The notes under the pieces are model-generated. The model had not been told where the DNA came from, searched no databases, and saw only the letters and a program-made list of their open reading frames with translations. A DNA stretch of 64,000 nucleotides, taken from the NCBI GenBank assembly GCA_036705045.1, contig JAUBTR010000019.1. One strand, given 5' to 3'. The position numbers and the translations under genes are program-made. Origin of the DNA: Microcoleus sp. BR0-C5 (GTDB lineage: Bacteria; Cyanobacteriota; Cyanobacteriia; Cyanobacteriales; Microcoleaceae). How positions within the stretch are numbered: position 1 is the first letter of the stretch; every line of letters starts with the position of its first letter. Shown here one piece after another: positions 3,744 to 63,905 of this stretch.

Positions 3744-4224
3744 AGTTGTTTTTGGCTCTTGCTATGGATGCTGCTGTTAGTTGAAAGTGAAATTGCAATG
3801 TGAAGCAGTGATTTATGATAGCAAAAGGATTCAGGCTCTGGAAGTATCCGGCATAGCCAAACTCGTGAAGCTGACTTGCGCGGTTTCTTCAAAAATATAA
3901 AAATTTTATATTTGTGCTTCAGTGATCGGGGCTGCACTACCAACAACAAAGCTACATATTTAATTCAAGTTTCTTTAGCGATTCTATTTCATTTGTGCAT
4001 GAGATTTTTTTGAACTAACCACAGAGGGCGCAGAGGACGCAGAGCCTATATAAAATATAGAAAGAGGAAAATAGAGATGTTCACAATTCCTGCAAGGGTT
4101 GCTATAGTTACAACTGGTAGTTCTGAATTATCAAGAAAATACATACTACCTCACAAAATTAATGTTGCCAAGTACATCTAATTATTTGCTCAAAAATGGT
4201 CGCGTACCCGCCTCTCTTCTAGAG

Positions 4225-5496
4225 ATGAAATCGATCGCCCCGTCAGCTTCTACTGTGGCGACAAGGGGGAGTGAGAACAATTTTTGTTTGGTGGATTTGG
4301 AAATTGCAGCAGGGGCGATTGTCCAAATTATCCCAGCAGGTACAAAACCTGTATCCTCCTCTGGAGATATCCCAGTTATAGATTTGCAGGGCGGCTTAGT
4401 TTGGCCTTGTTTTGTGGATATGCACACCCATTTAGACAAAGGCCACATTTGGGAACGATCGCCCAATCCCGATGGAACTTTTGCCAGCGCGATCGAAGCG
4501 GTAGGCGCTGATGCCAAAAAAAACTGGAATGCAGAGGATGTTTACCGGCGAATGGAGTTTGGCCTCAAGTGCAGCTACGCCCACGGAACCAAGGCTATCC
4601 GCACTCACATCGACAGCGCGGGCGAACAGGGAACCGTGAGTTTAGAAGTATTTGAAGCGCTGCAAGCCGCATGGGGCGATCGGCTGATATTGCAAGCAGT
4701 TTCCCTAGTTTCCCTCGACTATTTCCTGACACCAGCCGGCGAAAAATTAGCCGATCGCATGGCCCAAACCGGCAGCATTCTCGGCGGCTTCGCCTATATG
4801 AATCCCGACTTAGACAAACAACTCGATCGAGTTTTTGCCTTAGCCAAAGAACGAAATTTAAACCTCGACTTCCACACCGACGAAAACGACGATCCAGAAT
4901 CAGTAACACTGCGGGAAGTCGCAAAAACCGCCATCCGCCATCAATTTTCCGGTCAAATTATCTGCGGACACTGCTGTAGTTTAGCCGTACAACCCTCAGA
5001 TTTAGTAACAGAAACTCTGGAATTAGTCAAGCAAGCAAATATCGGCATTGTCAGCTTGCCGATGTGCAACCTTTACCTGCAAGACCGAGAATCTCAGCAT
5101 ACACCGCGCTGGCGGGGAGTGACACTGCTGCACGAACTCAAAGCAGCCGGAATTCCCGTTGCAGTTGCTAGCGACAATTGTCGCGATCCGTTTTACGGAT
5201 TTGGCGATCATGATGTTTTGGAAGTTTTTAATATGGCAGTCCGCATCGCTCATTTAGATAGGCCTTATGGAGACTGGCCCTGTGCAGTGACAAAGACTCC
5301 AGCCGATTTAATGGGATTGCCGAATTTAGGACGAATTGCAGTTGGTTTACCAGCAGATTTGATTTTGTTTAAGGCGCGGAATTTCAGCGAATTGTTATCT
5401 AGAGCGCAGGGCGATCGCACAGTTTTGCGGCAGGGCATTAAAATTGATACAGCTTTGCCAGATTACCGCGAACTAGACGAATTGTTAGCAACTTAA
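4225..5496 (+). CDS. codA: Cytosine deaminase-like amidohydrolase
   Basis: Motif FVDMHTHLDKGH and HTDE...D.. metal ligands fit the CodA family. The ORF track begins at 4162, but alignment to CodA N-termini favours the ATG at 4225. Confidence 0.65.
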   Translation: MKSIAPSASTVATRGSENNFCLVDLEIAAGAIVQIIPAGTKPVSSSGDIPVIDLQGGLVWPCFVDMHTHLDKGHIWERSPNPDGTFASAIEAVGADAKKNWNAEDVYRRMEFGLKCSYAHGTKAIRTHIDSAGEQGTVSLEVFEALQAAWGDRLILQAVSLVSLDYFLTPAGEKLADRMAQTGSILGGFAYMNPDLDKQLDRVFALAKERNLNLDFHTDENDDPESVTLREVAKTAIRHQFSGQIICGHCCSLAVQPSDLVTETLELVKQANIGIVSLPMCNLYLQDRESQHTPRWRGVTLLHELKAAGIPVAVASDNCRDPFYGFGDHDVLEVFNMAVRIAHLDRPYGDWPCAVTKTPADLMGLPNLGRIAVGLPADLILFKARNFSELLSRAQGDRTVLRQGIKIDTALPDYRELDELLAT

Positions 5497-5521
5497 ATGT
5501 GACATTTTGCACCAATATAAA

Positions 5522-5563
5522 GAACAGGCAAGATGCCTGTTCCACAAAGATGAATTTTCTTTC
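5522..5563. repeat. Copy of a dispersed hairpin element (GAACAGGCAAGATGCCTGTTCCACAA-AGATGAATTTTCTTTC)
   Basis: Same core as at 9107-9227, 19316-19500, 57609-57722 and the intragenic copies in nadE and ureC. Confidence 0.8.
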
Positions 5564-5742
5564 TACTCGTTACTAGGCAGAGCCGGGGAACCAGTTAATT
5601 GAGTTTTGTGGAACGGGCATATTGCACGTTCTTGACAATGGTGTAATATGTAGGTTTTAAAAAGCATTTAGCATTGGTATATTGTCAATTCGCCACTATT
5701 TTGATATAAATATAAAAGCTAATTCTAGTGAGGATGTTTTAA

Positions 5743-9106: not shown

Positions 9107-9227
9107 TATGTTGCACCATTCTCAAGAACAGGCTTTTCGGCCTGTTCCACAAAGAGTGAATTTTCTTGTGGAACAGGCCGAAAAGCCTGTCCCTAAAAAG
9201 CTTATTGAGAATGGTGCAACATTTGAG
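9107..9227. repeat. About 120-bp nested palindromic MITE-like element with outer arms ATGTTGCACCATTCTC/GAGAATGGTGCAACAT
   Basis: Long, nearly perfect inverted repeat immediately 3' of tRNA-Met. It belongs to the GAACAGGC..GCCTGTTC hairpin family. Confidence 0.8.
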
Positions 9228-9494
9228 TTCCTAGGTACTTGGTTGCTCAAGCCAATATTCTCGTAGAAACCTGGTTTATTTGGCCAAAAATTCGCTAAGG
9301 ACACTAAAAAGCCGGTTTCTGCCGGCTGTGACTCTGATAAATCGGCTTTTTTTACCGTTTCTGCAGGCGTCACCCAAGTATTGCTGTGAAATAACCCGGT
9401 GGATGACCACCCGTGCGTCAAAGACTCTCAATCTTTTTGGGGGGCGTTGCTCCTAGCCCGCCCAAAATATACTAATTTAGTCGAACAGTCAATC

Positions 9495-9533
9495 GATTTT
9501 AGATTTTAGATTTTAGATTTTAGATTTTAGAAT
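9495..9533. repeat. STRR heptamer array (GATTTTA)n; related arrays lie at 9652-9676, 10258-10291, 13725-13755, 36939-36985 and 47908-47935
   Basis: 7-bp periodic tandem repeats, read directly. Confidence 0.9.
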
Positions 9534-9678
9534 TGAAGCATTGACCCCACGGATAAATTCGGGGGCTCCTTTATCGGATACAGGTTTTTTATTTCTGGAC
9601 GGATGAATCCGGGGGCTTGTATCCCGGATGCTTGATTGTCAGTTTTGCCCAATCTAAAATCTCAAATCTCAAATCGTA

Positions 9679-19315: not shown

Positions 19316-19500
19316 CTTGCACCATTGTCAGCAACAGGCAAGATGCCTGTTCCACAACAGATGAATTTTCTTTTTGCACCATTGTCAGCAACAGGCAAGA
19401 TGCCTGTTCCACAACAGATGAATTTTCTTTTTGCACCATTGTCAGCAACAGGCAAGATGCCTGTTCCACAACAGATGAATTTTCTTTCTTGTGGGGAGTA
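19316..19500. repeat. Tandem array of 3 x about 60 bp of the GAACAGGCAAGATGCCTGTTCCACAACAGATGAATTTTCTTT hairpin element
   Basis: Three near-identical direct copies. The overlapping six-frame ORFs (19288-19565) encode repetitive peptides and are artefacts. Confidence 0.9.
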
Positions 19501-19617
19501 TGGGTTGGGCACGCGAGCCCGCCCATAAAAGCCTGATTGAGAATGGTGCAACCTATGAGTTTCAAGCAGGTTTAACTATAATGACTTACCCTAAGAATAG
19601 TTTAGATCCTAATAATT

Positions 19618-24768: not shown

Positions 24769-25090
24769 GTTATGCCATTGTCATTGAAAAAACACCCAAT
24801 AACTAAGCTGTTGCGCGTTTAAATTGCATATTCGGGACGGGCTAGAAGCCCATCCCACAATAATTTGAGTGATTTTTGACACACAATTTAAATGGAGAAC
24901 AGCTTATTCAGCTTATGCGCCAGATTTACCCGGATGTGCAGCCACAGGCGCTACCCTTGCAGAAGTACAGCAGCAAATTAAAGAAGCGATCGAATTTCAC
25001 TTAGAAGGGTTGCGAAAAGATGGTTTACTCATTCCCGAACCAACTACTCTATGTGAGTATGTTATCGAACGTTTCTTAGTCAAACAGTAA
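24769..25090 (+). pseudogene. hicB-like (UPF0150) antitoxin gene interrupted by an insertion of about 95 bp
   Basis: MMRYAIVIEKTPNN-stop at 24769-24813; the canonical continuation YSAYAPDLPGC...EAIEFHLEG resumes at about 24905 in another frame. No hicA is visible. Confidence 0.5.
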
Positions 25091-36894: not shown

Positions 36895-37177
36895 AGCATA
36901 AATTTGCTCCTCACACCAGAGGTGCGTGAGCCATCAGTCGATTTTAGATTTTAGATTTTAGATTTTAGATTTTAGATTTTAGATTTGACTCCACATCTTA
37001 GATTTTAGAAGCCAAGACAGGCTTCCCAGTCCATACAGCTTGTTCGATAATGTCAGCGGCGCGCTTGACTCCGCCCGATCGCCTCTTGCATCTCGATCGC
37101 CCTTTGTTTATACGACTCTGGGGTTAGGACTTTCACAATTGCCGATCGGACTTTAGAAACGCTCAATCCTCCTATAA

Positions 37178-38021: not shown

Positions 38022-38252
38022 ATGTCTTTTGAATTTGAAGGGGTCAATCAGTTTTCTGCAGAAGTTGAGCAAGATTCTGCCGTGCAGCAGCAACAGCCGC
38101 CAGCCAATTCTGTTGCTGAAGAATTGAACGATACGGAATTAGATGCGATTGCAGGCGGTCATATGTTATGGGATTATATGGAGCAGTGGCGTTTAGATAC
38201 AGACAATCCTGATGATACTAAGAACACACCACCTCTGATGGCAGGATTCTGA
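38022..38252 (+). CDS. Double-glycine-leader peptide precursor A (core HMLWDYMEQWRLDTDNPDDTKNTPPLMAGF)
   Basis: Leader ends ...ELNDTELDAIAGG followed by H. This is the classical GG cleavage motif recognised by C39-peptidase ABC transporters. Confidence 0.6.
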   Translation: MSFEFEGVNQFSAEVEQDSAVQQQQPPANSVAEELNDTELDAIAGGHMLWDYMEQWRLDTDNPDDTKNTPPLMAGF

Positions 38253-38478
38253 CAACTCACCACAGTTGAAGTGGACTTAAGAACAATCTGACTTGCAAAG
38301 AATGCCTGTATGGCCTATAAAATCGCGAACGGAAATTCGTCAAAAAGCGTTAAGTCAACCGTATTGAATTTTAACTCAGTAGCGGGTAAAAAGGTTGGAT
38401 AGCAGGCAACTTTGCTAGGAGTTGGTTCGATCGCTTTTGGAAGCAAAATTCACTAATTATGTCAGGAGGAAACATCAA

Positions 38479-38727
38479 ATGGAAACCAACAATCAATTTT
38501 TGCAAGAAGTATCGCCCCTGTTGTCCCAAATCGCAGCATCAGAATCGGTCAACTCAATCGATGAAGAATTGAACGAATTGGAATTAGAGGCGATCGCGGG
38601 TGGCCATTCCAATATGGCCAATCGCGCTCGGGCTGCGGGTATTCCTGTGATCACAGGCAGCGGGCCAAGGCCGAAATTTGCTAGTGGTTTCTCCATGTAC
38701 GGAGAGGATAAAAAGAGCGTCTTCTAA
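38479..38727 (+). CDS. Double-glycine-leader peptide precursor B1 (core HSNMANRARAAGIPVITGSGPRPKFASGFSMYGEDKKSVF)
   Basis: AGGAGG RBS 8 bp upstream of ATG 38479; leader METNNQFLQEV...IDEELNELELEAIAGG. The ORF track's longer 38422 start lacks an RBS. Confidence 0.65.
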   Translation: METNNQFLQEVSPLLSQIAASESVNSIDEELNELELEAIAGGHSNMANRARAAGIPVITGSGPRPKFASGFSMYGEDKKSVF

Positions 38728-38780
38728 CTAGAAGCGATCGAGCTTCTGCTGAGTTCAGCCACATAAGGAGGAAACATCAA

Positions 38781-39041
38781 ATGGAAACCAACAATCAATT
38801 TTTGCAAGAAGTATCGCCCCAGTTGTCCCAAATCGCAGCATCCGAATCGGCCAACTCAATCAATGAAGAATTGGACGAATTGGAATTAGAGGCGATCGCG
38901 GGTGGCCATTCCAATATGGCCAATCGCGCTCGGGCTGCGGGTATCCCTGTGATCACAGTCAGCGGCCCAAGACCTAATTTTGGTCCAGGCCCGGCTATGA
39001 ATAAGGAATTCTTGGAAGCATTAAGGAATTTCGATCGCTAA
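38781..39041 (+). CDS. Double-glycine-leader peptide precursor B2 (tandem paralogue of B1 with a divergent core C-terminus)
   Basis: Near-identical RBS, leader and first 20 core residues to B1. The core tail diverges (…VSGPRPNFGPGPAMNKEFLEALRNFDR). Confidence 0.65.
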   Translation: METNNQFLQEVSPQLSQIAASESANSINEELDELELEAIAGGHSNMANRARAAGIPVITVSGPRPNFGPGPAMNKEFLEALRNFDR

Positions 39042-39123
39042 CAGAAGAAATGATCGGCTTGTAACTAGAAGCGATCGAGCTTCTGCTGAGTTTAAACACT
39101 CAAGGACAAAACATCAATGGAAA

Positions 39124-39155
39124 CCCAGTTTCTTAAATAAACTGGGTTTTTATTT
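39124..39155 (+). terminator. Rho-independent terminator (CCCAGTTT-cttaaata-AACTGGG + TTTTTATTT) after a truncated third precursor start
   Basis: Stem-loop plus T-tract read directly. It is preceded by ATGGAAACCCAGTTTCTTAAATAA (METQFLK-stop), a remnant of another precursor copy. Confidence 0.6.
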
Positions 39156-39682: not shown

Positions 39683-42649
39683 TTACTCTAACTGTCGCTC
39701 AACTAATCTAGCAAACAATCCTCCCTGTTCGATCAATTCCTCAAACGAACCCACCTCCACCAAACGGCCTGCTTCAATTACATAAATGCGATCGGCATTG
39801 CGAACCGTACTCAGGCGGTGGGCGATGACAACTCGCGTCACATTCAACTTATCCAAACTCTCAGTAACGATCGCCTGCGTGCGGTTGTCCAAAGCACTCG
39901 TAGCTTCATCCATCAGGATAACCTTTGGTTTGACAACCATCGCGCGGGCAATTAACAATCTCTGCCGCTGTCCTCCCGAAAGATTCGTGCCGCCCTCGCT
40001 GACAACCGTGTGCATTCCCATCGGCATTTGTTCGATATCGGCGGCTAAACCGGCCATTTGCGCCGCTTCCCAAGCTTCCTCCTGCGTTACCATCGCCCCG
40101 CAGGTAATATTGTCAAACATTGAACCAGCATTAATTCTGCCGTTTTGCAGCACTACTCCTAACTGCCGCCGCACAGCTTGAACGTCGAGGCCTGCTAAAT
40201 CTTGATTGTCGTAATAAACAGTGCCGCTTTGTGCTATTTCAAACCCCAATAACAGCCGAAATAATGTTGATTTGCCACTACCAGACGGCCCGACGATCGC
40301 GATAAATTCCCCCGGTTGAATATTGATGCTGACATCATCTAAAATTGGGGGCCCGTCCTCCCGGTAGCGGAAAGTTGCCCTATCGACAGTAATTTGACCT
40401 TGCAAGCGGCCGGGATCGGCTTTTGTCGGGTCAGATTCCGGGATGCCCTGGACGATCGGTTTGGCTCGCTCCCACAGCGGTACAATTCCTAAAATATCAG
40501 TTAGGGTATTGCTCAAATCTGTGACGCCAGAAAGAAAGGTGCCGAAGGCGGAATTAAAAGCAAGAAAGGTTCCCATATTCAGTCCGCCTCCTCCTGTTTG
40601 AGGAGTTTGCATGAACACAATTGCAAACCAAAACATCAGAATAGAACTTACTAACGGCAGCGCTTCATTAAATACTGAAACACTGTCGTCAATTCGTTTA
40701 ATTCCTGTTCTTAGCTTGATTTGCTGGCTGTATTTTTTCGCCCAAGCTGCAAACGCTCGCCCTTCTGCAGCAGCTACCCGCAGCTTTGATACTCCGTTAA
40801 TTAGTTCTACTGTCAGCCCGTTAATGTCGCCTTCTCCTGTTTCCATCTGCCGCTCTTTTGGGATTAAGAGCAAGCTGGATGTAACTGTTACTATAACCGC
40901 AATAAGAGTTAAACCAATTCCGACTAAAGCCAGTGGCAGGCTGTAAATAAACATCAGCCCCAAATTCAGCAGGGAAAATATCGCGCTCAAAAGTGTCCGC
41001 TGCGTCGTGCCGCTGAGTTGGGCGCGAATTTGATTAACAGCTAATAAGCGAGTTAGCAAGTCGCCAGAAGAATAGGTGCGAAAAAACGCCGGTTTTAATC
41101 TCAGCAATCGATCCCAAACTGCTGGCTGGAGAGTGCCGCTGGCAACATTTTCGATCCGCAGCGTCAGAATGGTTTGGGCGATGCTAAATACAGCCCGTCC
41201 GATCGCCGCAACTAACAATACCAGCCCTAACTGCCACAGTAACAAACGATCGCTGTCAGGAATAGCATCATTGACCAAAATCGAGGTAGCTTGCGGCGTC
41301 ACCATCCCCAGCAGCGTTCCCAATATCCCCAGCCCGAAAGCAGCGATCATGTCTTTTTCGTAGCCCTTCGTCCCGAAGCGAAACAGTTCCGCAGCGTTGC
41401 GAACTAATAGCGGCAGCGGCCGGTAAAACATGAGAGTTTCTGGCGACAACTCTTGGGCGATTGCTTTAGTTACCCGTTGGCGGCTGCGGTCGATCGGATC
41501 GAACAAAGTATAAGGATCGTCCTTACCGGGCAACAAAGCTACAGGTCGATTGTCGGACTTTGTATAAGCCAACAGCGGGCCGCAGTTCTGCCGCCACCAA
41601 TATCCAACCAGCAGCACGCGGCGGGTGCGAAATTGGGACGATCGCGCGATCGCCTCCATCGGATCTTTAACTCGGCTGAAATCTTCGGAACCCGCCGGGG
41701 GATTGACTGTTATCCCTTGTGCCTTACCTACAGCCCCAGCAGCGATTAACAGCGGTGTTCCTTCCTCAGACAACACGATTTTCCGGGGATGCAGCACCTC
41801 GGTTAACTCTCCCAAAGCTGTCTGAGTGACTTGGCAGTTTAGCTGTTCGCGTTCCTGAAAGCGGCGGAATTCCTCGGCTTTTTGCCGGGAAACCAGCAAA
41901 TTCAAGCAGCAGCAGAAATACTCGTGCAGCAAAGCTAAACTCGCGCGCAGCCAGTCGGCATTTTCCACTTCTGCTGTTGAGAAAATTTGCACCTCAACTT
42001 CCCCGGATGCCACCAGCAACATATTCCCAGCCAGGGGAAACGCTGGGGAAGCGGAATTTAACTTCAATTCCCCGACACTCGCATCGCCCGACGAGACGCG
42101 CACCCAGACAACTGTTTCCGGCGGCGATCGCAGAATTTGACCGGGAATTAGCGATATCTGCTGCGAGGCTGCTACAACCCCAGTTTCTGGGGCAACTTTT
42201 TCCTCCGGCACGCGCGGCGGATCTATCCCGTAGGGAATCGCCCGTTCTCCCAAATGCTGTATCCACCCTTCCACAAGGGCGATGTTTTTGCCGTCACCAG
42301 CAGCCACTAAAGCGGCACAATCTGCGATCGCGATCTGTTCCAGTTCCGTTTCCGCGATTGCGATCGCCAGAAGTCCCCAACCTGGTTTTGAAATTTCTCC
42401 CCCCCTTGTAGGGGCGGTGCCCCCGTGCCCGCCCTGGTTGGGCGTGGTAGCAGCGCCAAACAAAGCCTCGCCTGCACTGACGCCGAACAGATAATAGCGG
42501 TTGCCCGCCGGCTTCTCACTTTGTATCTTGGCTGCAAAAACTGCGATCGCGCCCGATCGAACAATCCACACCTGATGCGGGTCATTCAGCAGCAGCGGTT
42601 CATTTCCTTTAATTCGGTGCAGTTTCTTAACAGGATTTAGATCGAGCAT
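39683..42649 (-). CDS. ABC transporter with N-terminal cyclic-nucleotide-binding-like domains (NHLM bacteriocin-system type, permease + ATPase fused)
   Basis: Walker A GPSGSGKST, signature LSGGQRQRL, Walker B ILMDEATSALD, six-TM ABC exporter core, and about 400 aa of N-terminal cNMP-like region. Confidence 0.75.
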   Translation of the reverse strand: MLDLNPVKKLHRIKGNEPLLLNDPHQVWIVRSGAIAVFAAKIQSEKPAGNRYYLFGVSAGEALFGAATTPNQGGHGGTAPTRGGEISKPGWGLLAIAIAETELEQIAIADCAALVAAGDGKNIALVEGWIQHLGERAIPYGIDPPRVPEEKVAPETGVVAASQQISLIPGQILRSPPETVVWVRVSSGDASVGELKLNSASPAFPLAGNMLLVASGEVEVQIFSTAEVENADWLRASLALLHEYFCCCLNLLVSRQKAEEFRRFQEREQLNCQVTQTALGELTEVLHPRKIVLSEEGTPLLIAAGAVGKAQGITVNPPAGSEDFSRVKDPMEAIARSSQFRTRRVLLVGYWWRQNCGPLLAYTKSDNRPVALLPGKDDPYTLFDPIDRSRQRVTKAIAQELSPETLMFYRPLPLLVRNAAELFRFGTKGYEKDMIAAFGLGILGTLLGMVTPQATSILVNDAIPDSDRLLLWQLGLVLLVAAIGRAVFSIAQTILTLRIENVASGTLQPAVWDRLLRLKPAFFRTYSSGDLLTRLLAVNQIRAQLSGTTQRTLLSAIFSLLNLGLMFIYSLPLALVGIGLTLIAVIVTVTSSLLLIPKERQMETGEGDINGLTVELINGVSKLRVAAAEGRAFAAWAKKYSQQIKLRTGIKRIDDSVSVFNEALPLVSSILMFWFAIVFMQTPQTGGGGLNMGTFLAFNSAFGTFLSGVTDLSNTLTDILGIVPLWERAKPIVQGIPESDPTKADPGRLQGQITVDRATFRYREDGPPILDDVSINIQPGEFIAIVGPSGSGKSTLFRLLLGFEIAQSGTVYYDNQDLAGLDVQAVRRQLGVVLQNGRINAGSMFDNITCGAMVTQEEAWEAAQMAGLAADIEQMPMGMHTVVSEGGTNLSGGQRQRLLIARAMVVKPKVILMDEATSALDNRTQAIVTESLDKLNVTRVVIAHRLSTVRNADRIYVIEAGRLVEVGSFEELIEQGGLFARLVERQLE

Positions 42650-45154: not shown

Positions 45155-45213
45155 CGGCTATAAGGCTGAAACCCATAATAAATTTTGCTGGTATTCAAGT
45201 CTCGATCCCCCTA

Positions 45214-45293
45214 AATCCCCCTGATTGTTGGGGAGTAGGGGTTGACTTTGACTGCTCTTGTCCCCCCCTTCTTAAGGGGGGTTAGGGGGGATC
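45214..45293. repeat. MITE-like element with GATCCCCC(T)...GGGGGGATC termini; a second copy lies at 63707-63785
   Basis: Two copies share TCTTGTCCCCCCCTT...GGGGGNTAGGGGGGATCTAGA. Confidence 0.75.
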
Positions 45294-45433
45294 TAGACTT
45301 CGATATAAACAAGAGAGACGGTCGGTTTAATAGTAAGGTGCGTTAGACCCGAAATCCTCGATAATCATTCTAGAACTTCGTCTGACGCACCCTACAAGTC
45401 GATGGGAGTGTGACAGTTGGCCTTAGTCCTAAA

Positions 45434-47221: not shown

Positions 47222-48082
47222 CAGCTATTCCTTTCGAGAGTGCGATCGCGGCTGTAAGCAGGGGTGTATTTGAAGGGGAAATTCCTTGCAAGTCAATTGA
47301 GGCACAAACAATTTCCCAACAAACGTTCAAAGCTTCCGTGCAATTACTTGAATGTTCTCACTCCTGTTTGCAGCTTGCCTGTAAAATCACTTTACGACAA
47401 TTAACCCTCGTAAGACCTAACTAACAGTAGAGTTTTCAGCTAACAAAAAGACCAGCTTACAGCCAGTCTTCCGACGGGGGAATGACCCGAACTTTTGGCT
47501 AGGTATCGCCCGCAGCCAGGGCCTACACATTGGTCACCAGTTAAGCTAAAAACACTTTTGTCAATGAGTAGAATTACTCTAAGGTATTGAAGTACCAACT
47601 TAAAATGTGCTGCGATTTGTTCAATGAGGTGGGTAAAACATTTACGACACCTGCAAGGATTGCTATATAGTTTGATTTTTGATAAAATTACTGAACCAAC
47701 CCTAGTGCAACAAAAGGTTCTAGCTTTGCTTGTGTTTCTCTAACTTATACGCAGTAAACCGGGCGCCCGAATCTTTCTTTAAAAAGCTTACTCTACACTG
47801 AATATACCTTTTGTCTAGTGGGGAAGTTCAGTGTAATTGGTGATTGGTAATTGTAGGTTGGGTAGAACGAAGAGAAACCGCACCTACAATTACTATTAAC
47901 AGTCAATCGATTTTAGATTTTAGATTTTAGATTAAAGAATTGAAGCATTGACTTGCGCGAGATAAATTCGGGGGCTTGCTTATCGGATACAGGTTTTTGA
48001 TTTCTGGGTCCTGAGTCTGCTTTCGGAATGAATCACGTGGCGGGTATCCTGGATGCTTTCGGTCAAAATCAAAAGTCAAAAG

Positions 48083-48816: not shown

Positions 48817-50241
48817 ATGAAAACTACCACAGAAAGCCTGCAGCTCACAGGTTTTGAAGAAATCTTAGAAGACCAGGAACTAACGGTTTCTTCAGCAGAT
48901 TACAGCCTTTTGACCGATCTCTACCAGCTAACGATGGCCGCTTGTTACGTCGGGGAAGGGCTCGACGGGCGGGCCGCGAGTTTTGAGTTGTTCGCGCGCA
49001 GGCTGCCAGAAGGTTTTGGCTACGCGATCGCGATGGGTTTGGCCCAAGTGCTCGACTATCTGGAGAAATTTCGGTTTTCTCAGTCGCAAATTCAGGCTTT
49101 GCAGTCCACTGGGATTTTTGCCGGCGCAGGAGAGCGATTTTGGACTTTACTCGCCACAGCCCGTTTTACTGGCGATGTTTGGGCGGTGCCGGAGGGGACG
49201 GCGGTGTTTGCCAATGAGCCACTGCTGCGAATTGAGGCTCCTCTGTGGCAGGCTCAGTTAGTGGAAACTTATTTATTGAATGCGATAAATTATCAAACTT
49301 TGATTGCGACGCGGGCCGCGCGGCTGCGCGATGTGGCGGGCCCGGAGGCTAAGTTGCTGGAATTCGGGACGCGCAGGGCTTTTGGGCCTCAAGCTGCTGT
49401 TTGGGCGGCTAGGGCTGCCCTGGCTGCGGGCTTCGATGGAACTTCTAATGTTTTGGCTGCTTTGAAGTTGGGCCGCAAGCCTGTCGGTACGATCGCCCAT
49501 GCTTTGGTAATGGCTGTGGCTGCCCTCGAAGGCACCGAGAATCAGGCGTTTGCAGCTTTTCACCGCTATTTTCCGGGGGCGCCGCTGCTGATCGATACTT
49601 ATGATACTGTGGCGGCGGCGCGGATGTTGGCCGATCAAGTAAACAGCGGTGAAATGCAGTTGGAAGGCGTGCGGCTGGATTCGGGCGATTTGGCGGTGCT
49701 GTCTCGGGAAGTTCGATCGATCCTTCCGGGCGTTCCAATTTTTGCTAGTGGTGATTTGGACGATCGAGAAATTGCTAAATTAAAAAGTAGCGGTGCTTGC
49801 ATTGACGGTTACGGTTTGGGAACCAAGTTGGTCAGCGGTTCCCCTGTGAACGGTGTTTATAAGTTGGTGGAAATTGACGGAATTCCGGTGATGAAAGAGG
49901 CAAGCGGCAAGGTAACATATCCAGGAAGAAAGCAAATTTTTAGACATATTGAAAATGGGCAAATTCTCGGAGATTGTTTGGGATTGTCGGGAGAAACTAT
50001 TAAAAATAGCGATGATTACGTACCATTAATGGAGTTGGTTGTCAAGGATGGTAAACAAGTCCAGAACCAGGAAAGTTTGGAGGAGATCGCCAAACGCACT
50101 GCTGCTTCTGTCGCCAGTCTTCGACCCGAAACTCGCCAACTTGACAACCCGATTTCGCCGTCAGTGGAAATTTCAACAGATTTGCAGACTCTCACCCAAA
50201 AAACGAAAAAGAGTCAATCGATTTTAGATTTTAGATTTTAG
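48817..50241 (+). CDS. pncB: Nicotinate phosphoribosyltransferase
   Basis: LTDLYQLTMAACY and GTRRA motifs are conserved NAPRTase blocks. The ORF track starts at 48799; the 3' end reads through into an STRR array. Confidence 0.8.
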   Translation: MKTTTESLQLTGFEEILEDQELTVSSADYSLLTDLYQLTMAACYVGEGLDGRAASFELFARRLPEGFGYAIAMGLAQVLDYLEKFRFSQSQIQALQSTGIFAGAGERFWTLLATARFTGDVWAVPEGTAVFANEPLLRIEAPLWQAQLVETYLLNAINYQTLIATRAARLRDVAGPEAKLLEFGTRRAFGPQAAVWAARAALAAGFDGTSNVLAALKLGRKPVGTIAHALVMAVAALEGTENQAFAAFHRYFPGAPLLIDTYDTVAAARMLADQVNSGEMQLEGVRLDSGDLAVLSREVRSILPGVPIFASGDLDDREIAKLKSSGACIDGYGLGTKLVSGSPVNGVYKLVEIDGIPVMKEASGKVTYPGRKQIFRHIENGQILGDCLGLSGETIKNSDDYVPLMELVVKDGKQVQNQESLEEIAKRTAASVASLRPETRQLDNPISPSVEISTDLQTLTQKTKKSQSILDFRF

Positions 50242-50351
50242 ATTTTAGATTGAAGTCAGTAGTCAGTAGTCAGTAGTCAGTAGTCAACAGTCAACAGTCA
50301 ACAGTCAACAGTCAACAGTCAACAGTCAACAGTCAACAGTCAACAGTCAAC
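50216..50351. repeat. Compound STRR array (GATTTTA)4-(AGTCAGT)4-(CAACAGT)n
   Basis: Three consecutive heptamer repeat types, overlapping the pncB stop region. Confidence 0.9.
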
Positions 50352-50366
50352 AATTACCGATTCCCT

Positions 50367-52127: not shown

Positions 52128-53981
52128 ATGAAAATTGCGATCGCACAACTCAACCCTACTATTGGTGATATCTTTGGCAACTCCAACCTAATTCTGGAGG
52201 CTGCGAAAAAAGCTGAGGTTGAGGGCGCAAACTTATTGCTAACACCGGAACTTTCCCTGATCGGTTATCCGCCGCGCGATTTGTTAATCAATCCGAGTTT
52301 CATTGCAGATGCAGGTGCACAGTTGCTGCAACTAGCGCAAGCTTTGCCACCGGAGTTGGCACTCATAGTCGGCACTGCCTTACCTAATGCTAATGCTGTT
52401 AAACTCGGCGGAAAATCATTGTTTAATAGCGCTGTTTTGTTGCAAAATGGCGTGGTCAAACAAGTTTTTCATAAACGCTTGTTGCCTACTTATGATGTAT
52501 TTGACGAAGATAGATATTTTGAACCGGGACAAAACAGCCATTATTTTACTATTGGCAAAGTCAAAATCGGCGTGACAATTTGTGAAGATTTGTGGAACAA
52601 TGAGGAGTTTTGGGGTAAACGCAGTTACGCGGGCGATCCTGTTTCCGATTTGGCAAAATTGGGTGTAGATTTAGTGGTGAATTTGTCGGCATCGCCTTAT
52701 TCTGCGGGGAAGCGGGGAGTGCGATCGGCTATGTTGCAGCACAGCGCCATCCGCTGCGGAATACCGATTGTTTACGCTAATCAGGTAGGCGGAAATGACG
52801 ATATTATTTTTGACGGCAGCAGTTTTGCTGTGAATCGAAAGGGTGATTTAATTCAGGTATTGGCTTCTTTTGAAACTGATTTGGCGCTGCTGGAATATGA
52901 CCCAGCTAAACAAGATTTAGTTGGCAGCGGGAACGGGCAAGATGCCCGTTCCACAACAGATTTGGGATTATGTGAAGGACGACAAAAACTAGGTTCGATC
53001 GGCAGTGGCGTTGGCAGCGGCGGGAACGGGCAAGATGCCCGTTCCACAACAGATTTGAGTTTTCATCCGGCAGAAGGAGATGCCGAAATTTGGGCGGCTT
53101 TGGTTTTGGGAGTGCGAGATTATGTTCGCAAGTGCGGTTTTTCTAAGGTTGTACTCGGTTTGAGTGGCGGGATAGATTCGGCTTTGGTGGCTGCGATCGC
53201 CAGTTGCGCGATCGGGGCCGAAAATGTTCTAGGGGTGTTGATGCCTTCTCCTTACAGTTCGGATCATTCTGTTAACGATGCTTTGGAATTAGCCCGAAAT
53301 CTGGGCATCGCGATCGAACTCTTGCCGATCGGCGATTTGATGAAAACTTACGATCGCACTCTAGCCAATTTGTTTGTCAACACAACTTTCGGGATTGCTG
53401 AGGAAAATATTCAATCGCGGATTCGAGGCAATCTGTTGATGGCAATTTCTAACAAGTTCGGACATTTGCTGCTTTCGACGGGCAATAAGTCGGAAATGGC
53501 GGTGGGTTACTGCACTCTCTACGGCGATATGAATGGGGGATTGGCGGTGATTTCCGATGTGCCGAAAACTCGCGTTTATTCGCTTTGTCGGTGGCTGAAT
53601 TCTGGCGGATATGTAGGGGCGGTGCCCCCGTGCCCGCCCTCTCCGTACCCACACCCGTGCCCGCCCCTGGGAAAGGAAATTATTCCGGTTAATATTATTA
53701 GTAAAGCGCCGAGTGCTGAACTGAAACCGGGTCAAATTGACCAAGATTCTTTGCCTGCATACGATGTTTTGGATGACATCTTGTATCGGTTGATAGAACA
53801 TCACGAATCTGCCCAAAAAATTGTCGCTGCAGGACACGATGAAGCGGTGGTTAAACGGGTAGTAAAATTAGTGAGGCAAGCGGAGTTTAAACGGCGGCAA
53901 GCAGCCCCTGGTTTGAAAATTAGCGATCGAGCTTTTGGTACCGGTTGGCGGATGCCGATCGCCAAATCTTCCTTCTATTAA
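52128..53981 (+). CDS. nadE: Glutamine-dependent NAD+ synthetase (CN-hydrolase + NAD synthetase domains), carrying in-frame repeat insertions
   Basis: N-terminal nitrilase-like domain (MKIAIAQLNP...), C-terminal PP-loop SGGIDSA. 617 aa, about 60 aa longer than usual because of the insertions at 52918-53060 and 53624-53672. Confidence 0.85.
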   Translation: MKIAIAQLNPTIGDIFGNSNLILEAAKKAEVEGANLLLTPELSLIGYPPRDLLINPSFIADAGAQLLQLAQALPPELALIVGTALPNANAVKLGGKSLFNSAVLLQNGVVKQVFHKRLLPTYDVFDEDRYFEPGQNSHYFTIGKVKIGVTICEDLWNNEEFWGKRSYAGDPVSDLAKLGVDLVVNLSASPYSAGKRGVRSAMLQHSAIRCGIPIVYANQVGGNDDIIFDGSSFAVNRKGDLIQVLASFETDLALLEYDPAKQDLVGSGNGQDARSTTDLGLCEGRQKLGSIGSGVGSGGNGQDARSTTDLSFHPAEGDAEIWAALVLGVRDYVRKCGFSKVVLGLSGGIDSALVAAIASCAIGAENVLGVLMPSPYSSDHSVNDALELARNLGIAIELLPIGDLMKTYDRTLANLFVNTTFGIAEENIQSRIRGNLLMAISNKFGHLLLSTGNKSEMAVGYCTLYGDMNGGLAVISDVPKTRVYSLCRWLNSGGYVGAVPPCPPSPYPHPCPPLGKEIIPVNIISKAPSAELKPGQIDQDSLPAYDVLDDILYRLIEHHESAQKIVAAGHDEAVVKRVVKLVRQAEFKRRQAAPGLKISDRAFGTGWRMPIAKSSFY

Positions 53982-55580: not shown

Positions 55581-56913
55581 TCAAGCGGGCTGAAGCCACT
55601 GAGATTCTGCGGACAAAGCAGCTTTAGGTAACACCCAAAGTTTTACTCTCGCTACGGTGGTCAAGCACCGTCTACACAGTCGGTCAAGCTTTACAACTAA
55701 CTTACTGGCTACTTTTCTTAGAATATTGGCAGCGCCGTTTAGATCTGCATTGATTACAGTTCCATCGGCAGAGCGATACAATCCACGTTTAATTCGTTTC
55801 CCAGATGCTTTCCACTCAGGCGGTTTTTCACCGTACTTGGGTAGGGAGTCTCCATCAAGAAAACTACTTTTAGACGTATAGGCTTCTTCTGTTTCAGTGA
55901 ATTTAATGCCGTACAAATTACACAACTGGCTCAGCCGATCTTTTAATTTTCCTAACGGCATCTGAACAAACTTTTGATTATTCAGTTTACCCATATCGAC
56001 ATTGGATTTGAAACCCTGATTCCATCCAATTACTAGATTTCCAATACCATGCTTTAAGCAGTGGGAGACGATTAACTTCGCAGCTTTATTAATTCCATCG
56101 CGCATTTGGTGATTCCGCTTGCGGGTTACGCGGTCTAGCCAGCTATCCCAGTAGCCCGTGGGCTTTCCTTCCTTTCTAGTTGCTATTTTTTTGTTCCAAA
56201 GTTGATTCATCGCTTTCATGGCGCGAGCATCAATCAAAAAGGAATTTCCGAGCGTATCAACGCAAGCTGCTAAATTATCAGCAGTCCCCAAATCGATTGA
56301 TAACGCTTGGCTATAATCTAAAGCGTGCTGCTGACATTCTACTTCGTAAGACATTTCTAAGTAGAAAGCACCATTCTTCGGAAGAATTGTGAATTCTTTA
56401 ACCTTTGAGTAGTCAATGTTTGACGGCATGGGTAGAAAGAATTCAGAAACCCCTGCGCCAGCGCCGTACTGTTAAACCCAGGGAAAATCTCAACTGGTCG
56501 CCGACAAGCGCTGGCTTTAATCCACCAGAATTTGGATAGGCAACTTTAAACAACTTAGAACCTGTTAAATAGCTCGGAGGCTTGGGTCTAAAATGCAATT
56601 GACCTTTGCCGTACAAAGCTTTTAGCTCTTTGAAACTTTTGAACGCTTCTGTTACCGACATCAAGGTTTGCTGCATGGGTGTTGAAGGCAACGACTTGGC
56701 AACCATCGACTTAGAAATTGACGGTTCAAAAGATAAATCAAACTTCCCTGTCAGCAGTTTTCCTGTTTTAAAAAATGTCTGACGAGTAAAATAAACGGCG
56801 CTATTGTATAACTTTCCAGATTGCCGACAGAGATATTGCAACACGGCTTCAACTTCTTTGGTAGGAGACAGTAATACTTGCTGTACTCCCATTGTTTTTT
56901 TGATTCTAGCCAC
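55581..56913 (-). pseudogene. tnpB: IS200/IS605-family tnpB (RNA-guided nuclease lineage), split by a frameshift and lacking zinc-finger cysteines
   Basis: N-terminal part is ORF 56443-56913 and the RuvC part is ORF 55581-56429, in different frames. RuvC motifs are present (IDLG, E, DLNGAANI) but the C-terminal CxxC pairs are absent. No tnpA. A subterminal hairpin GGGGACTTCAGTCCCC lies at about 57075. Confidence 0.6.
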
Positions 56914-57480: not shown

Positions 57481-57608
57481 AATCCATAATGAAGTAAGAT
57501 GAAGATTTGCCGTTGGGTGGGGGCGGGTTTTTGAGATTGTCTATTTTGGGAAAATATTGTTTGTAAAACCCGCCCCTACATGATTGTATAATCTGTTAAA
57601 ACAGAGAT

Positions 57609-57722
57609 ATTGCACCATTGTCAATTAGCCTTTTATGAACAGGCAAGATGCCTGTTCCACAAAATATAAATTTTCTTGTGGAACAGGCATCTTGCCTGTT
57701 GCTGAAAATAGTGCAAGATATC
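57609..57722. repeat. Nested palindromic hairpin element (same family as 9107-9227) immediately 3' of ureC
   Basis: ATTGCACCATTGTCA...GAACAGGCAAGATGCCTGTTCCACAAAATATAAATTTTCTTGTGGAACAGGCATCTTGCCTGTT...AGTGCAAGAT. Confidence 0.85.
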
Positions 57723-57724
57723 AG

Positions 57725-59482
57725 TTAAAACAAAAAGTATCGCTGCGCCATTGGCAAAACTGTTGCCGGTTCGCAAGTTAACAATTCCCCATCCGCCCTG
57801 ACTTCATAAGTTTCTGGATCGACTTCCATTTGTGGCAAATAATCGTTTAGTTTCATGTCTCTTTTACTAATTTGTCGTGTCCCGGAAACTGCTACAGTGG
57901 GCTTTTGCAAACCGAGCTGTGCTGCAATACCTCGATCGCGCGCAGCTTGGGAAACAAACGTCAGACAAGTCGCCCCAATCGCCCCGCCAAAACTGCCAAA
58001 CATCGGCCTCATGTGCACTGGTTGCGGCGTAGGAATGCTGGCGTTAGCATCTCCCATCTGCCCATAGGCGATCGCCCCTCCTTTAATTACCAGTTCCGGT
58101 TTCACCCCAAAAAAAGCCGGTCGCCACAAACACAAATCCGCCAATTTTCCCTCTTCCACCGAACCGACATACTGACTAATTCCGTGAGTAATTGCCGGAT
58201 TAATTGTATATTTCGCAATGTACCGCTTCACCCGAAAATTGTCATTTTCTCCCCCTGTGGAACGGGCATCTTGCCCGCCCAAACCCCCTGTGGAACGGGC
58301 ATCTGGTCCGTTCAAATTCCCCCTTTGAACCTTCATTTTATGTGCCGTTTGCCAAGTCCGAATAATCACCTCTCCAACTCTTCCCATCGCCTGAGAATCA
58401 GAAGAAATCATACTAAACGCGCCTAAATCGTGGAGAATATCCTCAGCAGCAATAGTTTCCCTTCTAATTCTCGATTCAGCAAAAGCCACATCTTCAGGAA
58501 TGCCCCGATCCAAATGGTGGCAAACCATCAACATATCTAAATGTTCTTCTAAAGTATTGACAGTGTAAGGGCGAGTCGGGTTAGTTGACGAGGGCAAAAC
58601 ATTAGCTTGACCGCACACTTTAATAATATCCGGCGCGTGTCCGCCGCCAGCACCTTCGGTGTGGTAAGTGTGAATAGCGCGATTTTTAAATGCGGCAATT
58701 GTAGCTTCCACAAATCCCGCTTCATTGAGAGTATCGGTGTGAATTGCAACTTGCACATCGTACTCGTCAGCTACACTCAAACAAGTGTCGATCGTTGCTG
58801 GTGTAGTTCCCCAATCTTCATGGAGTTTCAAACCCATTGCACCGGCAAAGATTTGTTCAATTAATCCTTGGGGTTGACTGCTATTTCCTTTACCTAAAAA
58901 TCCTAGATTTACGGGGAAAGCGTCAGCAGCTTGCAGCATTCGGTACATATGCCAAGGCCCTGGAGTGCAAGTTGTGGCGTTTGTACCCGTTGCCGGGCCA
59001 GTGCCGCCGCCGATCATTGTCGTGATGCCGGAGGCGATCGCCACTTCTATTTGCTGCGGACAAATAAAGTGAATGTGAGTATCAATTCCCCCAGCGGTGA
59101 GAATCATTCCTTCACCGGCAATCACTTCTGTACCGGGCCCGATAATAATATCTACCCTATCTTGAATATAAGGATTTCCGGCTTTACCAATTTTGTAAAT
59201 TTTGCCGTCTTTAATGCCCACATCTGCTTTAACAATTCCCCACCAGTCTAATATTAAAGCATTAGTAATCACCGTGTCAACAGCGCCGTCTGCATTAGAA
59301 ATAGGCGACTGTCCCATGCCGTCGCGAATAACTTTGCCACCGCCAAACTTAACTTCATCCCCGTAGGTTGTGAAGTCTTTTTCAACTTCTATGAATAATT
59401 CTGTATCGGCTAACCGGACGCGATCGCCCACAGTCGGCCCGAAGGTTTCCGCGTAGGCGCGGCGATCCATTCTGTAACTCAT
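57725..59482 (-). CDS. ureC: Urease alpha subunit, with an in-frame repeat insertion
   Basis: Amidohydrolase metal ligands ([13 protein letters not shown], carbamylated-Lys region); 585 aa. The insert [24 protein letters not shown] is encoded by two copies of the GAACGGGCAAGATGCCCGTTCCACA repeat. Confidence 0.9.
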
Positions 59483-59487
59483 ATTAA

Positions 59488-60492
59488 TTAGCTCCTTACT
59501 TGATTTAATTTTCCCACAAACTGGTTCACCTGTTCTTCTGTTTTAAAGAATCCTTCACCAATTGAACCAAAGAAATCATCTTGTGCTATTTCTTGATAGT
59601 TAGGTAACAAATTAGCCAACTCTTCTACATCAATGTTTAAATAGTTTGACAATCTATCTATGTATACCTTAAACTTTAGACCCTCCCTAGGCGTGCTTTC
59701 AGTTAACAAAAGATTGAAAATAACTTGGCTATTTTGACTTGTTCCTCTCAATGCCAGACCTCTTGTTGTTGTATTTATCCAAAATATTTGTGGTATGATT
59801 TCGTTGTAAAGTAGTCTATACACTTTTCCAACTTCCTTGCTCTCTGCTATTTCAATTAATTCTTCCAGGGTCAAGTTGGGCTTTCTTTTTGATATTATAT
59901 TTACAGGTTTAATTTCAGCCTCAATCAAGAATTTTATTGCTAGTAACTCTCTACCACTAGAGTCACAGAAATACTGGAATGTTGCGACATTGATTCTCAC
60001 ACCATAAGTTTCTAATAAGTATTTAATAATCCTTTCAGAACTACTATCTATCTGTGCAGCTACAATTATAATTTTGTGCTGAGCATTCAAAATATCAGGG
60101 AATTCTGAGCTAAATTTCTCACAGAAAGCCTTTTCTAAGTTACTGCCATTTTTAGTCAGTAAATAAGCATTGGCAATTTCTCTAACTCTCTCGTTTGACA
60201 AATCCTTAACCCATGAGGCGTAATCCAAGGCTTGTGCTGTTACTTCTCTTGCTGTTTTGTCCTTCTTTAACTCAACAATGACTAAATCTCCGTTCCTATC
60301 TATACATAAAAGGTCAAGTTGTCCACCATAATCAGTAATCACTTGCCGACCAATTACCAAGAGATCATCTGCTAGGATTGAAATATCATTATCTAGCCAG
60401 GTTTCTAAACGAGATTCTAAGTCTAACTTAGATTGGGTAATTTCCTTCAAGTGAGCCTTTGATATTTTCCACAATCTAATTTGATCGGGCAT
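59488..60492 (-). CDS. PD-(D/E)XK nuclease-like protein (NucS/DUF91-like N-terminal domain) inserted between ureB and ureC
   Basis: [24 protein letters not shown] fits the D...(D/E)xK restriction-endonuclease-like core. The C-terminal about 200 aa are uncharacterised. Confidence 0.35.
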
Positions 60493-63706: not shown

Positions 63707-63785
63707 GATCCCCCTAAATCCCCCTTAAAAAGGGGGACTTTGAGCGCTCTTGTCCCCCCCTTTTTAATGGGGGCTAGGGGGGATC
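63707..63785. repeat. Second copy of the GATCCCCCTAAATCCCCC...GGGGGATC MITE-like element
   Basis: Matches 45214-45293. Confidence 0.75.
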
Positions 63786-63905
63786 TAGAGGAATGTGACT
63801 CAGACAGGAGACTGATACTAACTTTGACCTTAAGTTGAACTTAAATTAACACAAATGCGCGGCCCGCCCTAGTCATTACATCCAAATTTACCCTCAAAAA
63901 TTGAT

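Follow-up and report, generated by a model that had tools for sequence, protein, structure and literature searches.

A REP/REPIN-like hairpin element and a strain-variable repeat array in the urease alpha subunit gene of Microcoleus sp. BR0-C5

The ureC locus and its 33-nt repeat array

The window analyzed here is a stretch of 64,000 nucleotides from Microcoleus sp. BR0-C5 (contig JAUBTR010000019.1). It contains ureC, the gene of the urease alpha subunit (57725..59482, minus strand), whose conserved coding sequence holds two adjacent copies of a short hairpin repeat that is dispersed in the window and occurs in other genes. The ureC gene is an intact, uninterrupted open reading frame (ORF) of 585 aa, and its product is 100% identical to the database UreC of Microcoleus sp. 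BR0-C5; ureD, ureA, and ureB are located upstream. The protein matches the Pfam families Urease_alpha and Amidohydro_1. The Ni ligands and the carbamylated Lys (H136, H138, K219, H248, H274, and D362) are invariant in an alignment of 61 sequences from several phyla. With its intact frame, its metal-site residues and its predicted fold (discussed below), the gene appears to encode a functional urease alpha subunit. An earlier note on this DNA, made from the sequence alone, had considered that ureC might be a pseudogene, which the intact frame and the invariant metal site contradict.

The insert is 66 nt long and consists of two head-to-tail units of 33 nt, which follow HKMKVQRGN and encode UreC residues 390–411, inside the Amidohydro_1 (TIM-barrel) domain (127–469 of 585 residues). 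On the coding (minus) strand, the site reads AAT, TTGAACGGACCAGATGCCCGTTCCACAGGGGGT, TTGGGCGGGCAAGATGCCCGTTCCACAGGGGGA, and GAAAATGAC. Unit 1 (58283..58315, minus strand; TTGAACGGACCAGATGCCCGTTCCACAGGGGGT) encodes residues 390–400, and unit 2 (58250..58282, minus strand; TTGGGCGGGCAAGATGCCCGTTCCACAGGGGGA) encodes residues 401–411. The two units differ at 4 of 33 positions and have in common a linker outside the hairpin (ACAGGGGG/TTG), spaced exactly 33 nt. The hairpin cores are located at 58289–58314 in unit 1 and at 58256–58281 in unit 2. Each unit is a partly degraded copy of the element, with three substitutions relative to its 26-nt core, and the core of unit 1 has changed from GGGCAA to GGACCA, replacing Q with P. 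The canonical 10-bp stem is lost from the predicted fold of both ureC copies, whereas the copies in nadE retain it. The earlier note had found this repeat in ureC at 58252–58316, 1–2 nt away from the boundaries determined here (58250–58315), and had described it as in frame, which the uninterrupted ORF bears out.

We compared the window protein with its best 120 database matches, which belong to Microcoleus, Tychonema, and "Oscillatoria nigro-viridis", are 92–100% identical, and come from isolates, metagenome-assembled genomes and complete genomes. Because an insert is present at this site in all of these relatives, it is neither an assembly artefact, a possibility that the earlier note had raised, nor private to BR0-C5. 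Loop length was counted between the anchors HKMKVQRG and NFRVKRY. The ancestral-type loop has 10 residues (xLPxDxxxND) in most bacteria, and 10 is also the modal length among representatives at 50% identity. Among the best 120 relatives, the loop has 15 aa with one unit in about 7 alleles, 26–27 aa with two units in about 50, 37–38 aa with three units in about 21, 48 aa with four units in 3, and 70 aa with six units in 1. A different repeat, PPLTPPYQGGE, occupies the loop of 35 alleles in one or two copies (18–19 or 31–33 aa).

The unit peptide across the array alleles is L[DN]GQDARSTGG. At the DNA level, the array has an exact 33-nt period, AAT, (TTR NNC GGG CAA GAT GCC CGT TCC ACA RGN GRN)n, GAA AAT GAC, and the formula AAT, (TTRNNCGGGCAAGATGCCCGTTCCACARGNGRN)n, GAAAATGAC fits the ureC DNA of the relatives compared. 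All of the UreC alleles are in frame and stop-free, with lengths that are multiples of three. The ureC gene of PCC 7112 has three identical units and a terminal variant, and the six-unit allele combines the same unit variants as a mosaic. Taking exactly one unit away from the three-unit allele of strain L203 and adding two substitutions (the change of GGGCAA to GGACCA) gives the window allele, whose unit 2 is identical to the last unit of the L203 allele. The hairpin core is nearly invariant across alleles while the linker codons vary, and the linker residues change non-conservatively (G/D/N/S, L/F, and D/N/G/Y).

The array combines a unit length that is a multiple of three with copy-number polymorphism (1, 2, 3, 4, and 6) among proteins of 92–100% identity, the two hallmarks of a coding variable-number tandem repeat (VNTR). 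Judging from these alleles, the ureC feature has the marks of a strain-variable coding minisatellite in which units are gained and lost in place, and it is probably not the product of repeated insertion.

The dispersed hairpin element and its copies within genes

The consensus of the dispersed repeat is GAACRGGCAAGATGCCYGTTCCACAA, with the stem-loop GAACRGGCA-AGA-TGCCYGTTC. The 23-mer GGCAAGATGCCCGTTCCACAGGG has six sites in the window at three or fewer mismatches, against 0.00 expected from 100 shuffles. A looser search gave 12 copies of the 26-nt core, four of them in coding sequences, and a loop variant pair near 9140. The core is free of stop codons in all six frames, and the opposite strand reads 5'-TTGTGG, then the hairpin. 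CCACA is invariant by design of the search, and the next A is conserved in the consensus.

Single copies, inverted doublets and tandem arrays of the element are all found. Just downstream of ureC, an intergenic composite element (57596..57731, both strands) overlaps the ureC stop codon; it is an inverted doublet (57636–57661, plus; 57677–57702, minus) flanked by outer arms containing TTGCACCATTGTCA, and it is predicted to fold into a hairpin of roughly 25 bp (−49 kcal/mol, z −11.8). The other intergenic copies include a tandem array of three identical 57-nt units (19317..19487, plus strand; hairpin copies at 19331, 19388, and 19445) and two copies in opposite orientation (5521–5546, plus; 5607–5632, minus) that begin 25 nt downstream of the ORF at 4162–5496. 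A copy of a divergent subfamily, GGGACGGGCTAGAAGCCCATCCCACA, lies at 24834..24859 (plus strand, intergenic) and has compensated stem changes. The loop variant forms an intergenic inverted pair, GAACAGGC-TTTTCG-GCCTGTTCCACAA, which adjoins a tRNA gene (9115..9203, both strands). No Rfam family matches the hairpin, and the microRNA matches to the doublet are of the generic long-hairpin kind and below threshold. We rejected CRISPR arrays, as the tandem units are identical and lack distinct spacers, and intrinsic terminators, as no T-run follows the hairpin. We found no relevant literature on Microcoleus repeats.

A scan of metagenome contigs for RGGCAAGATGCCYGTTCCACA yielded at least 120 loci with at least 181 copies. 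The consensus of the copies listed is (A)GAACAGGCAAGATGCCTGTTCCACAA, often followed by ~14 nt and an inverted copy. At the variable R/Y position of the stem, the 181 copies listed have A:T in 133 cases, G:C in 45 and a mismatch in 3, so that 178 of 181 are Watson-Crick paired. About three quarters of them lie in short open stretches, i.e., they are intergenic, and 23 were validated as internal to coding sequences. Among the matches listed, inverted pairs are spaced exactly 36 nt in 19 cases, and the tandem periods are 33, 48, 56, and 66–67 nt. Compensated stems are also found in other subfamilies (GGGCGGGCA...TGCCCACCC, and the window copy at 24834). Some copies carry outer arms, TTGCACCATTGTCA ... 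TGGTGCAA, and are therefore composites resembling MITEs. A short stem-loop, a GTGG tag, many mainly extragenic copies and inverted doublets of fixed spacing are the features of repetitive extragenic palindromic (REP) sequences and REPINs. As far as sequence features can tell, the element has REP/REPIN architecture and is new to that group, with Microcoleus as its host.

In the metagenome sample, copies of the element lie inside at least 11 unrelated genes; the host genes include those of UreC, NadE, and nine other proteins. The nadE gene of the window (52128–53981, plus strand, 617 aa) contains two copies (52930..52955 and 53023..53048, plus strand) that have perfect 10-bp stems, share one frame and both encode GNGQDARSTTDL. 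They are located in the linker between the CN_hydrolase (residues 2–258) and NAD_synthase (322–592) domains. The statement of the earlier note that NadE carries the QDARST peptide from the same repeat holds for both copies, which are read in the same frame as in ureC. The nadE gene of PCC 7112 (578 aa) has one copy, which aligns with window copy 2, and lacks an extra block of ~90 nt in the window gene that includes copy 1 (52930). Like ureC, nadE is polymorphic in copy number, with one copy in PCC 7112 and two here. The ureC and nadE arrays can serve as high-resolution strain markers for Microcoleus populations. Short-read assemblies may collapse the arrays, and annotation pipelines produce false small-ORF calls over the intergenic copies. 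A second repeat family, which is GTAG-tagged and REP-like (TGTAGGGGCGGTGCCCCCGTGCCCGCCCT), is also in frame in nadE at 53612–53640, where it encodes YVGAVPPCPPSPYPHPCPP. It has an identical copy at 42407–42435 and related copies at 9436–9464 and 19497–19525, and the Pro-rich NadE segment that it encodes is longer in strain L203.

In six of the nine other genes, Pfam domains are matched on both sides of the copies. One of them encodes a multidomain glycosyltransferase of 1399 aa and has one forward copy along with five reverse copies that repeat every 48 nt. TrpE has two copies spaced 33 nt, CbiG has either one or two, and a RibD_C protein has five, of which one is nested within another; a DUF4347/RTX protein carries an inverted doublet, and the sixth host is a DAO oxidoreductase. 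For a DUF4350 protein and an RluA-like protein (1–3 copies), the element is likewise in a long open frame, but Pfam domains are matched only to one side of it. The recurrent, frame-preserving insertion into unrelated genes that the earlier note had proposed is therefore found in TrpE, CbiG, RibD_C, DAO, the glycosyltransferase and others. In the RibD_C gene, the cluster with the nested copy spans L139:1792-2040. The reverse copies of the glycosyltransferase gene form a five-unit array at L106:2696-3000 that encodes (STTDEFSGGTGILPVG)n. A database search with concatenated repeat peptides retrieved nine short hypothetical ORFs, whose six named sources are all Microcoleus, and no further host genes.

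The earlier note had suggested checking whether the copies within coding sequences keep the frame and share one phase relative to the hairpin. Considering the copies listed that have at least 100 open codons on both sides, the frame is kept, and 55 of 57 copy/frame combinations are in a single codon phase. Of the two that deviate, one is an antisense ORF lying over a phase-A copy, and the other is a dubious match that has four mismatches. The used phase reads N[GR]QDA[RC]ST in forward copies and CGTGILPV in reverse copies; because the doublet spacing of 36 nt is a multiple of three, a reverse copy shares the phase of its forward partner. All nine genes other than those of UreC and NadE have the UreC/NadE phase, for which the probability is (1/3)^9, about 5e-5. 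In the phase that is used, the encoded peptide, NRQDACSTKSEFSCGTGILPV, is small and hydrophilic, whereas the second phase meets TGA in the usual doublet spacer and the third encodes hydrophobic or aromatic peptides of the GTGKMPVPQRVNFLVEQASCLF type. It is plausible that the single phase reflects purifying selection, in which case the rule would be a clean example of selection filtering selfish DNA inside genes.

The UreC loop and the origin of the array

An AlphaFold prediction based on Microcoleus UreC alone, with its shallow alignment, had a pLDDT of only 28, and a diverse alignment of representatives was used instead. The resulting model of the window protein has a pLDDT of 92.4 and a pTM of 0.93, and it superimposes on UreC of K. 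aerogenes with a target-normalized TM-score of 0.98 and an rmsd of 1.5 Å. The sole segment with a pLDDT below 50 comprises residues 394–411, within the insert (390–411), and sits between helices 369–387 and 415–424 of the model. Because only this segment falls below 50, the insert is read as a disordered loop in the model. By sequence, the site corresponds to residues about 387–395 of K. aerogenes UreC, and the length of this loop ranges from 6 to 70 residues in natural ureases. The assignment of the insert to a loop by the earlier note thus stands, while its description as "near the C-terminal region" is loose for residues 390–411 of 585. In the urease activation complex, the switch regions that contact UreD are residues 277–284, 330–340, and 538–545 of HpUreB (PMC10121161), and the insert loop is located outside them.

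The identical loop carries inserts of unrelated sequence in other lineages (L005, L007, L024, L032, L064, and L072; locus position ~4150–4260), most of which have hairpin potential. The insert of Allocoleopsis, CCCCTCTCC-TACAA-GGAGAGGGG, can form a hairpin, and that of Pleurocapsa is unrelated and looks similar in kind. The insert of Scytonema is long (33 aa) and unrelated, those of Competibacter and Methylocaldum read CTCCCCTC...GGGAGAGGGG-TTGGGGGTGAGGG, and a betaproteobacterium has yet another unrelated sequence in the same loop. Elsewhere in the 7.7-kb locus of Competibacter and of one betaproteobacterium (L032 and L072), the loop repeat occurs a second time, and their inserts are therefore dispersed repeats too; those of Methylocaldum, Allocoleopsis, and Pleurocapsa merely resemble such repeats. 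The PPLTPPYQGGE allele of 35 of the 120 UreC relatives (e.g., L002:4165-4221) relates to a third hairpin family (CCCCCTAAATCCCCCTTAAAAAGGGGGA-like), which is intergenic in the window at 45204–45300 and 63707–63790. Two different Microcoleus repeat families have thus hit the UreC loop. Most simply, such insertions would survive selection at few places in UreC, and this loop would be one of them. As a naturally permissive site (K. aerogenes ~387–395) that tolerates at least 70 aa, it may be useful for tagging or engineering ureases.

We consider it quite likely that one REP/REPIN-like insertion into the length-variable, disordered UreC loop seeded the two-unit, 33-nt coding minisatellite. A single ancestral insertion of the Microcoleus hairpin element into this naturally length-variable loop would have come first, and the copy number would then have changed as the units with their hairpins slipped during replication or recombined unequally. 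The insert would be translated as a flexible, hydrophilic loop rich in Gly, Ser, Thr, Asp, and Arg and would be close to neutral, with selection on the peptide filtering the codon phase. The original spread of the element may have occurred by a REP-associated tyrosine transposase (RAYT) or by another hairpin-dependent mechanism.

Several points weigh against this proposal. No empty orthologous site is present among the Microcoleus ureC relatives, and therefore the boundaries of the original insertion cannot be set. The one-unit allele is just 5 aa longer than the ancestral 10-aa loop; therefore, the event either replaced part of the ancestral loop or was something other than a simple insertion. 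The motif scan of the sampled DNA did not find a RAYT flanked by the element. It gave a single Y1_Tnp/RAYT-like ORF (L103:888-1655, minus strand, 255 aa, NHVH ... YIHGNP, Pfam E 2.8e-18), which has neither element copies nor hairpins at its ends; the element lies 3.4 kb away on the same contig. In addition, we infer both the near-neutrality of the insert and the selective cause of the single codon phase.

Alternatively, the array may be an adaptive module under selection, in which the copy number of the loop tunes the assembly, activation, stability or interactions of urease, or in which mRNA hairpins regulate the translation or stability of the ure transcript. This appears improbable. The array does persist across Microcoleus and Tychonema with rapid copy-number change among proteins of 95–99% identity, the hairpin core is better conserved than the linker codons, and in another clade, this loop holds a second repeat family. 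However, the same peptide occurs in linkers or loops of at least 10 unrelated enzymes, which is hard to square with a urease-specific function, and the non-conservative changes in the linkers, the degraded hairpins of the window ureC and the position of the loop outside the published UreD-contact regions (PMC10121161) do not favor it either. Recent slippage and homogenization would account for the invariant core just as well.

The one-phase rule and the repeated hits on the UreC loop might together also reflect targeted or phase-aware insertion or gene conversion, for which we see about as little likelihood as for an adaptive module. Targeting could have proceeded through microhomology with loop codons such as GGGCAAGA. 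If this were true, hairpin repeats would vary the loop lengths of conserved enzymes in a directed manner.

Two independent, side-by-side insertions of the same element, as the wording "inserted twice" of the earlier note implied, are rather less probable again. Two copies that differ from each other are present, the element inserts repeatedly and nests within itself (e.g., in the RibD_C gene of L139), and unrelated repeats have hit the same loop in other lineages. However, independent events would keep neither an exact period nor common linkers, whereas the ureC copies are exactly 33 nt apart with a common non-hairpin linker, the relatives form a series of 1, 2, 3, 4, and 6 units that keeps this period, with no difference between the units of a strain, and the window allele is a three-unit allele less exactly one unit. 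Because of the exact period, the 1-2-3-4-6 series and the identity of units within strains, we favor one insertion with tandem expansion and contraction, and we describe the two copies as adjacent units of one array.

Finally, an insert outside the functional protein, whether an assembly artefact, a pseudogene or a hairpin bypassed by the ribosome, is hardly credible, because hairpin-forming coding sequence merely resembles bypass elements and nothing specific speaks for it, whereas the insert occurs in ~120 independent assemblies including complete genomes, all alleles are open and in frame in multiples of three, the copies keep one codon phase across genes (a constraint unexpected for bypassed or non-functional inserts), the catalytic residues and the remainder of UreC are highly conserved, and the genes upstream include ureD, ureA, and ureB. 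In some mitochondria, GC-rich inserts are bypassed during translation.

Related systems and neighboring features

Bacterial coding VNTRs are typically found in surface or contingency genes. The ureC array resembles them in its head-to-tail units of a multiple of three, in its copy-number polymorphism among strains and presumably in its change by slippage or unequal recombination, but it was formed from a dispersed mobile repeat and lies in the gene of a cytoplasmic enzyme of metabolism.

REPs consist of a GT[AG]G tag and a hairpin with a 6–10-bp stem and frequently form inverted dimers (PMC3733652), and classes of cyanobacterial TnpA_REP have been described (PMC6006769). The GTAG-20 family of Opitutus terrae is mostly GTGG-tagged, a variant that avoids the TAG stop; O. 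terrae and R. conorii are named as the highest in intragenic repeats, and over half of the reported intragenic inserts are dimers or clusters encoding 20–80 aa (Di Nocera et al. 2013, PMC3733652). Like these intragenic REPs, the Microcoleus element is a short hairpin with a 5' GT[AG]G tag and a high copy number, is mostly intergenic and often just downstream of genes, and frequently forms inverted dimers; in both, a minority of copies lie in frame in conserved genes as singles, dimers or clusters encoding ~10–80 aa. It differs from GTAG-20 in being another sequence family with a cyanobacterial host, in that an intragenic copy became a strain-variable 33-nt coding minisatellite, and in the single phase of its copies in coding sequences. 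With REPIN/RAYT systems (Bertels and Rainey 2011, PMC3116915; PMC6006769), it shares inverted doublets of fixed spacing (36 nt, 19 cases here), stem covariation and the long hairpin of the doublet. Unlike those systems, no element-flanked RAYT was found in the sampled DNA, and some Microcoleus copies have MITE-like outer arms (TTGCACCATTGTCA).

Rickettsia palindromic elements (RPEs) are in frame in housekeeping genes, as the work of Ogata et al. 2000 is summarized in later papers (PMC10969869 and PMC3733652). According to these summaries, RPEs are, like the Microcoleus element, selfish palindromes that insert in frame into unrelated housekeeping genes at fold-compatible sites and encode a family-specific peptide. 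As summarized there, RPEs are ~100–150 bp long and alphaproteobacterial, whereas the Microcoleus element is a cyanobacterial repeat of unrelated sequence with a core of 26 nt (33-nt unit). A further difference from RPEs is how prominently tandem copies vary in number at a single site. The Microcoleus element inserts in frame at permissive sites as they do, but it is a functional analogue only and not a member of that family.

In-frame "decoration" of proteins by REPs or RPEs is already known from Rickettsia and Opitutus, and the Microcoleus case adds to it. Its particular additions are a coding minisatellite of 33-nt units in UreC (also in TrpE), which varies among strains, and the strictness with which one codon phase is kept. 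Here, REP-like selfish DNA decorates conserved enzymes (urease, NAD synthetase, anthranilate synthase, and CbiG) of a globally important soil-crust and mat cyanobacterium, and the step that follows insertion, the conversion into a strain-variable coding minisatellite, can be seen.

The SDR1-8 repeats of Nostocaceae are reportedly hairpins of 21–27 nt with compensatory mutations, nested insertions and an association with tandem heptamers, as described by Elhai et al. in 2008 (Genome Res 18:1484); in-frame protein decoration and coding VNTRs are said not to have been the focus of that work. By this description, they are like the Microcoleus element in being hairpin-forming cyanobacterial repeats. 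SDRs have been reported only from Nostocaceae (PMC5861425).

The surroundings of ureC contain additional features. The Rfam family RF02514 (5' ureB sRNA of Helicobacter) scores 108 bits at 59041–59327 (plus strand), in antisense orientation to the 5' portion of ureC; most likely, the antisense-RNA model here recognizes conserved urease-alpha coding sequence, and the match is not evidence of an sRNA. Between ureB and ureC, a NucS_C-like protein is encoded in the window (59488–60492, minus strand) and in L203 (L203:1991-2995), whereas this slot is occupied by AAA_15 and DUF4276 genes in L201 (1117–2927) and by a Glyco_transf_61 gene in PCC 7112 (compare L202:1692-2822). On this gene content, the ure operon has a variable insertion slot in its ureB-ureC gap. 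Approximately 0.8 kb downstream of ureC, a TnpB/IS605 OrfB-like gene is split into two ORFs (OrfB_IS605 and a Cas12f1-like TNB domain; 55581–56913, minus strand) and is probably a decayed insertion sequence.

Elsewhere in the window, tandem 217-nt repeats of 95% identity (38105–39127) contain conserved EELNELELEAIAGGH-like coding segments and sequences resembling ribosome-binding sites, and they have the look of arrayed genes for precursor peptides with double-glycine leaders. Tandem repeats of heptamers (TTTTAGA and AGTCAAC/AGTCAGT), which are typical of filamentous cyanobacteria, are located at 9489–9548, 36934–37010, 47889–47948, and 50200–50358, near some of the dispersed repeats.

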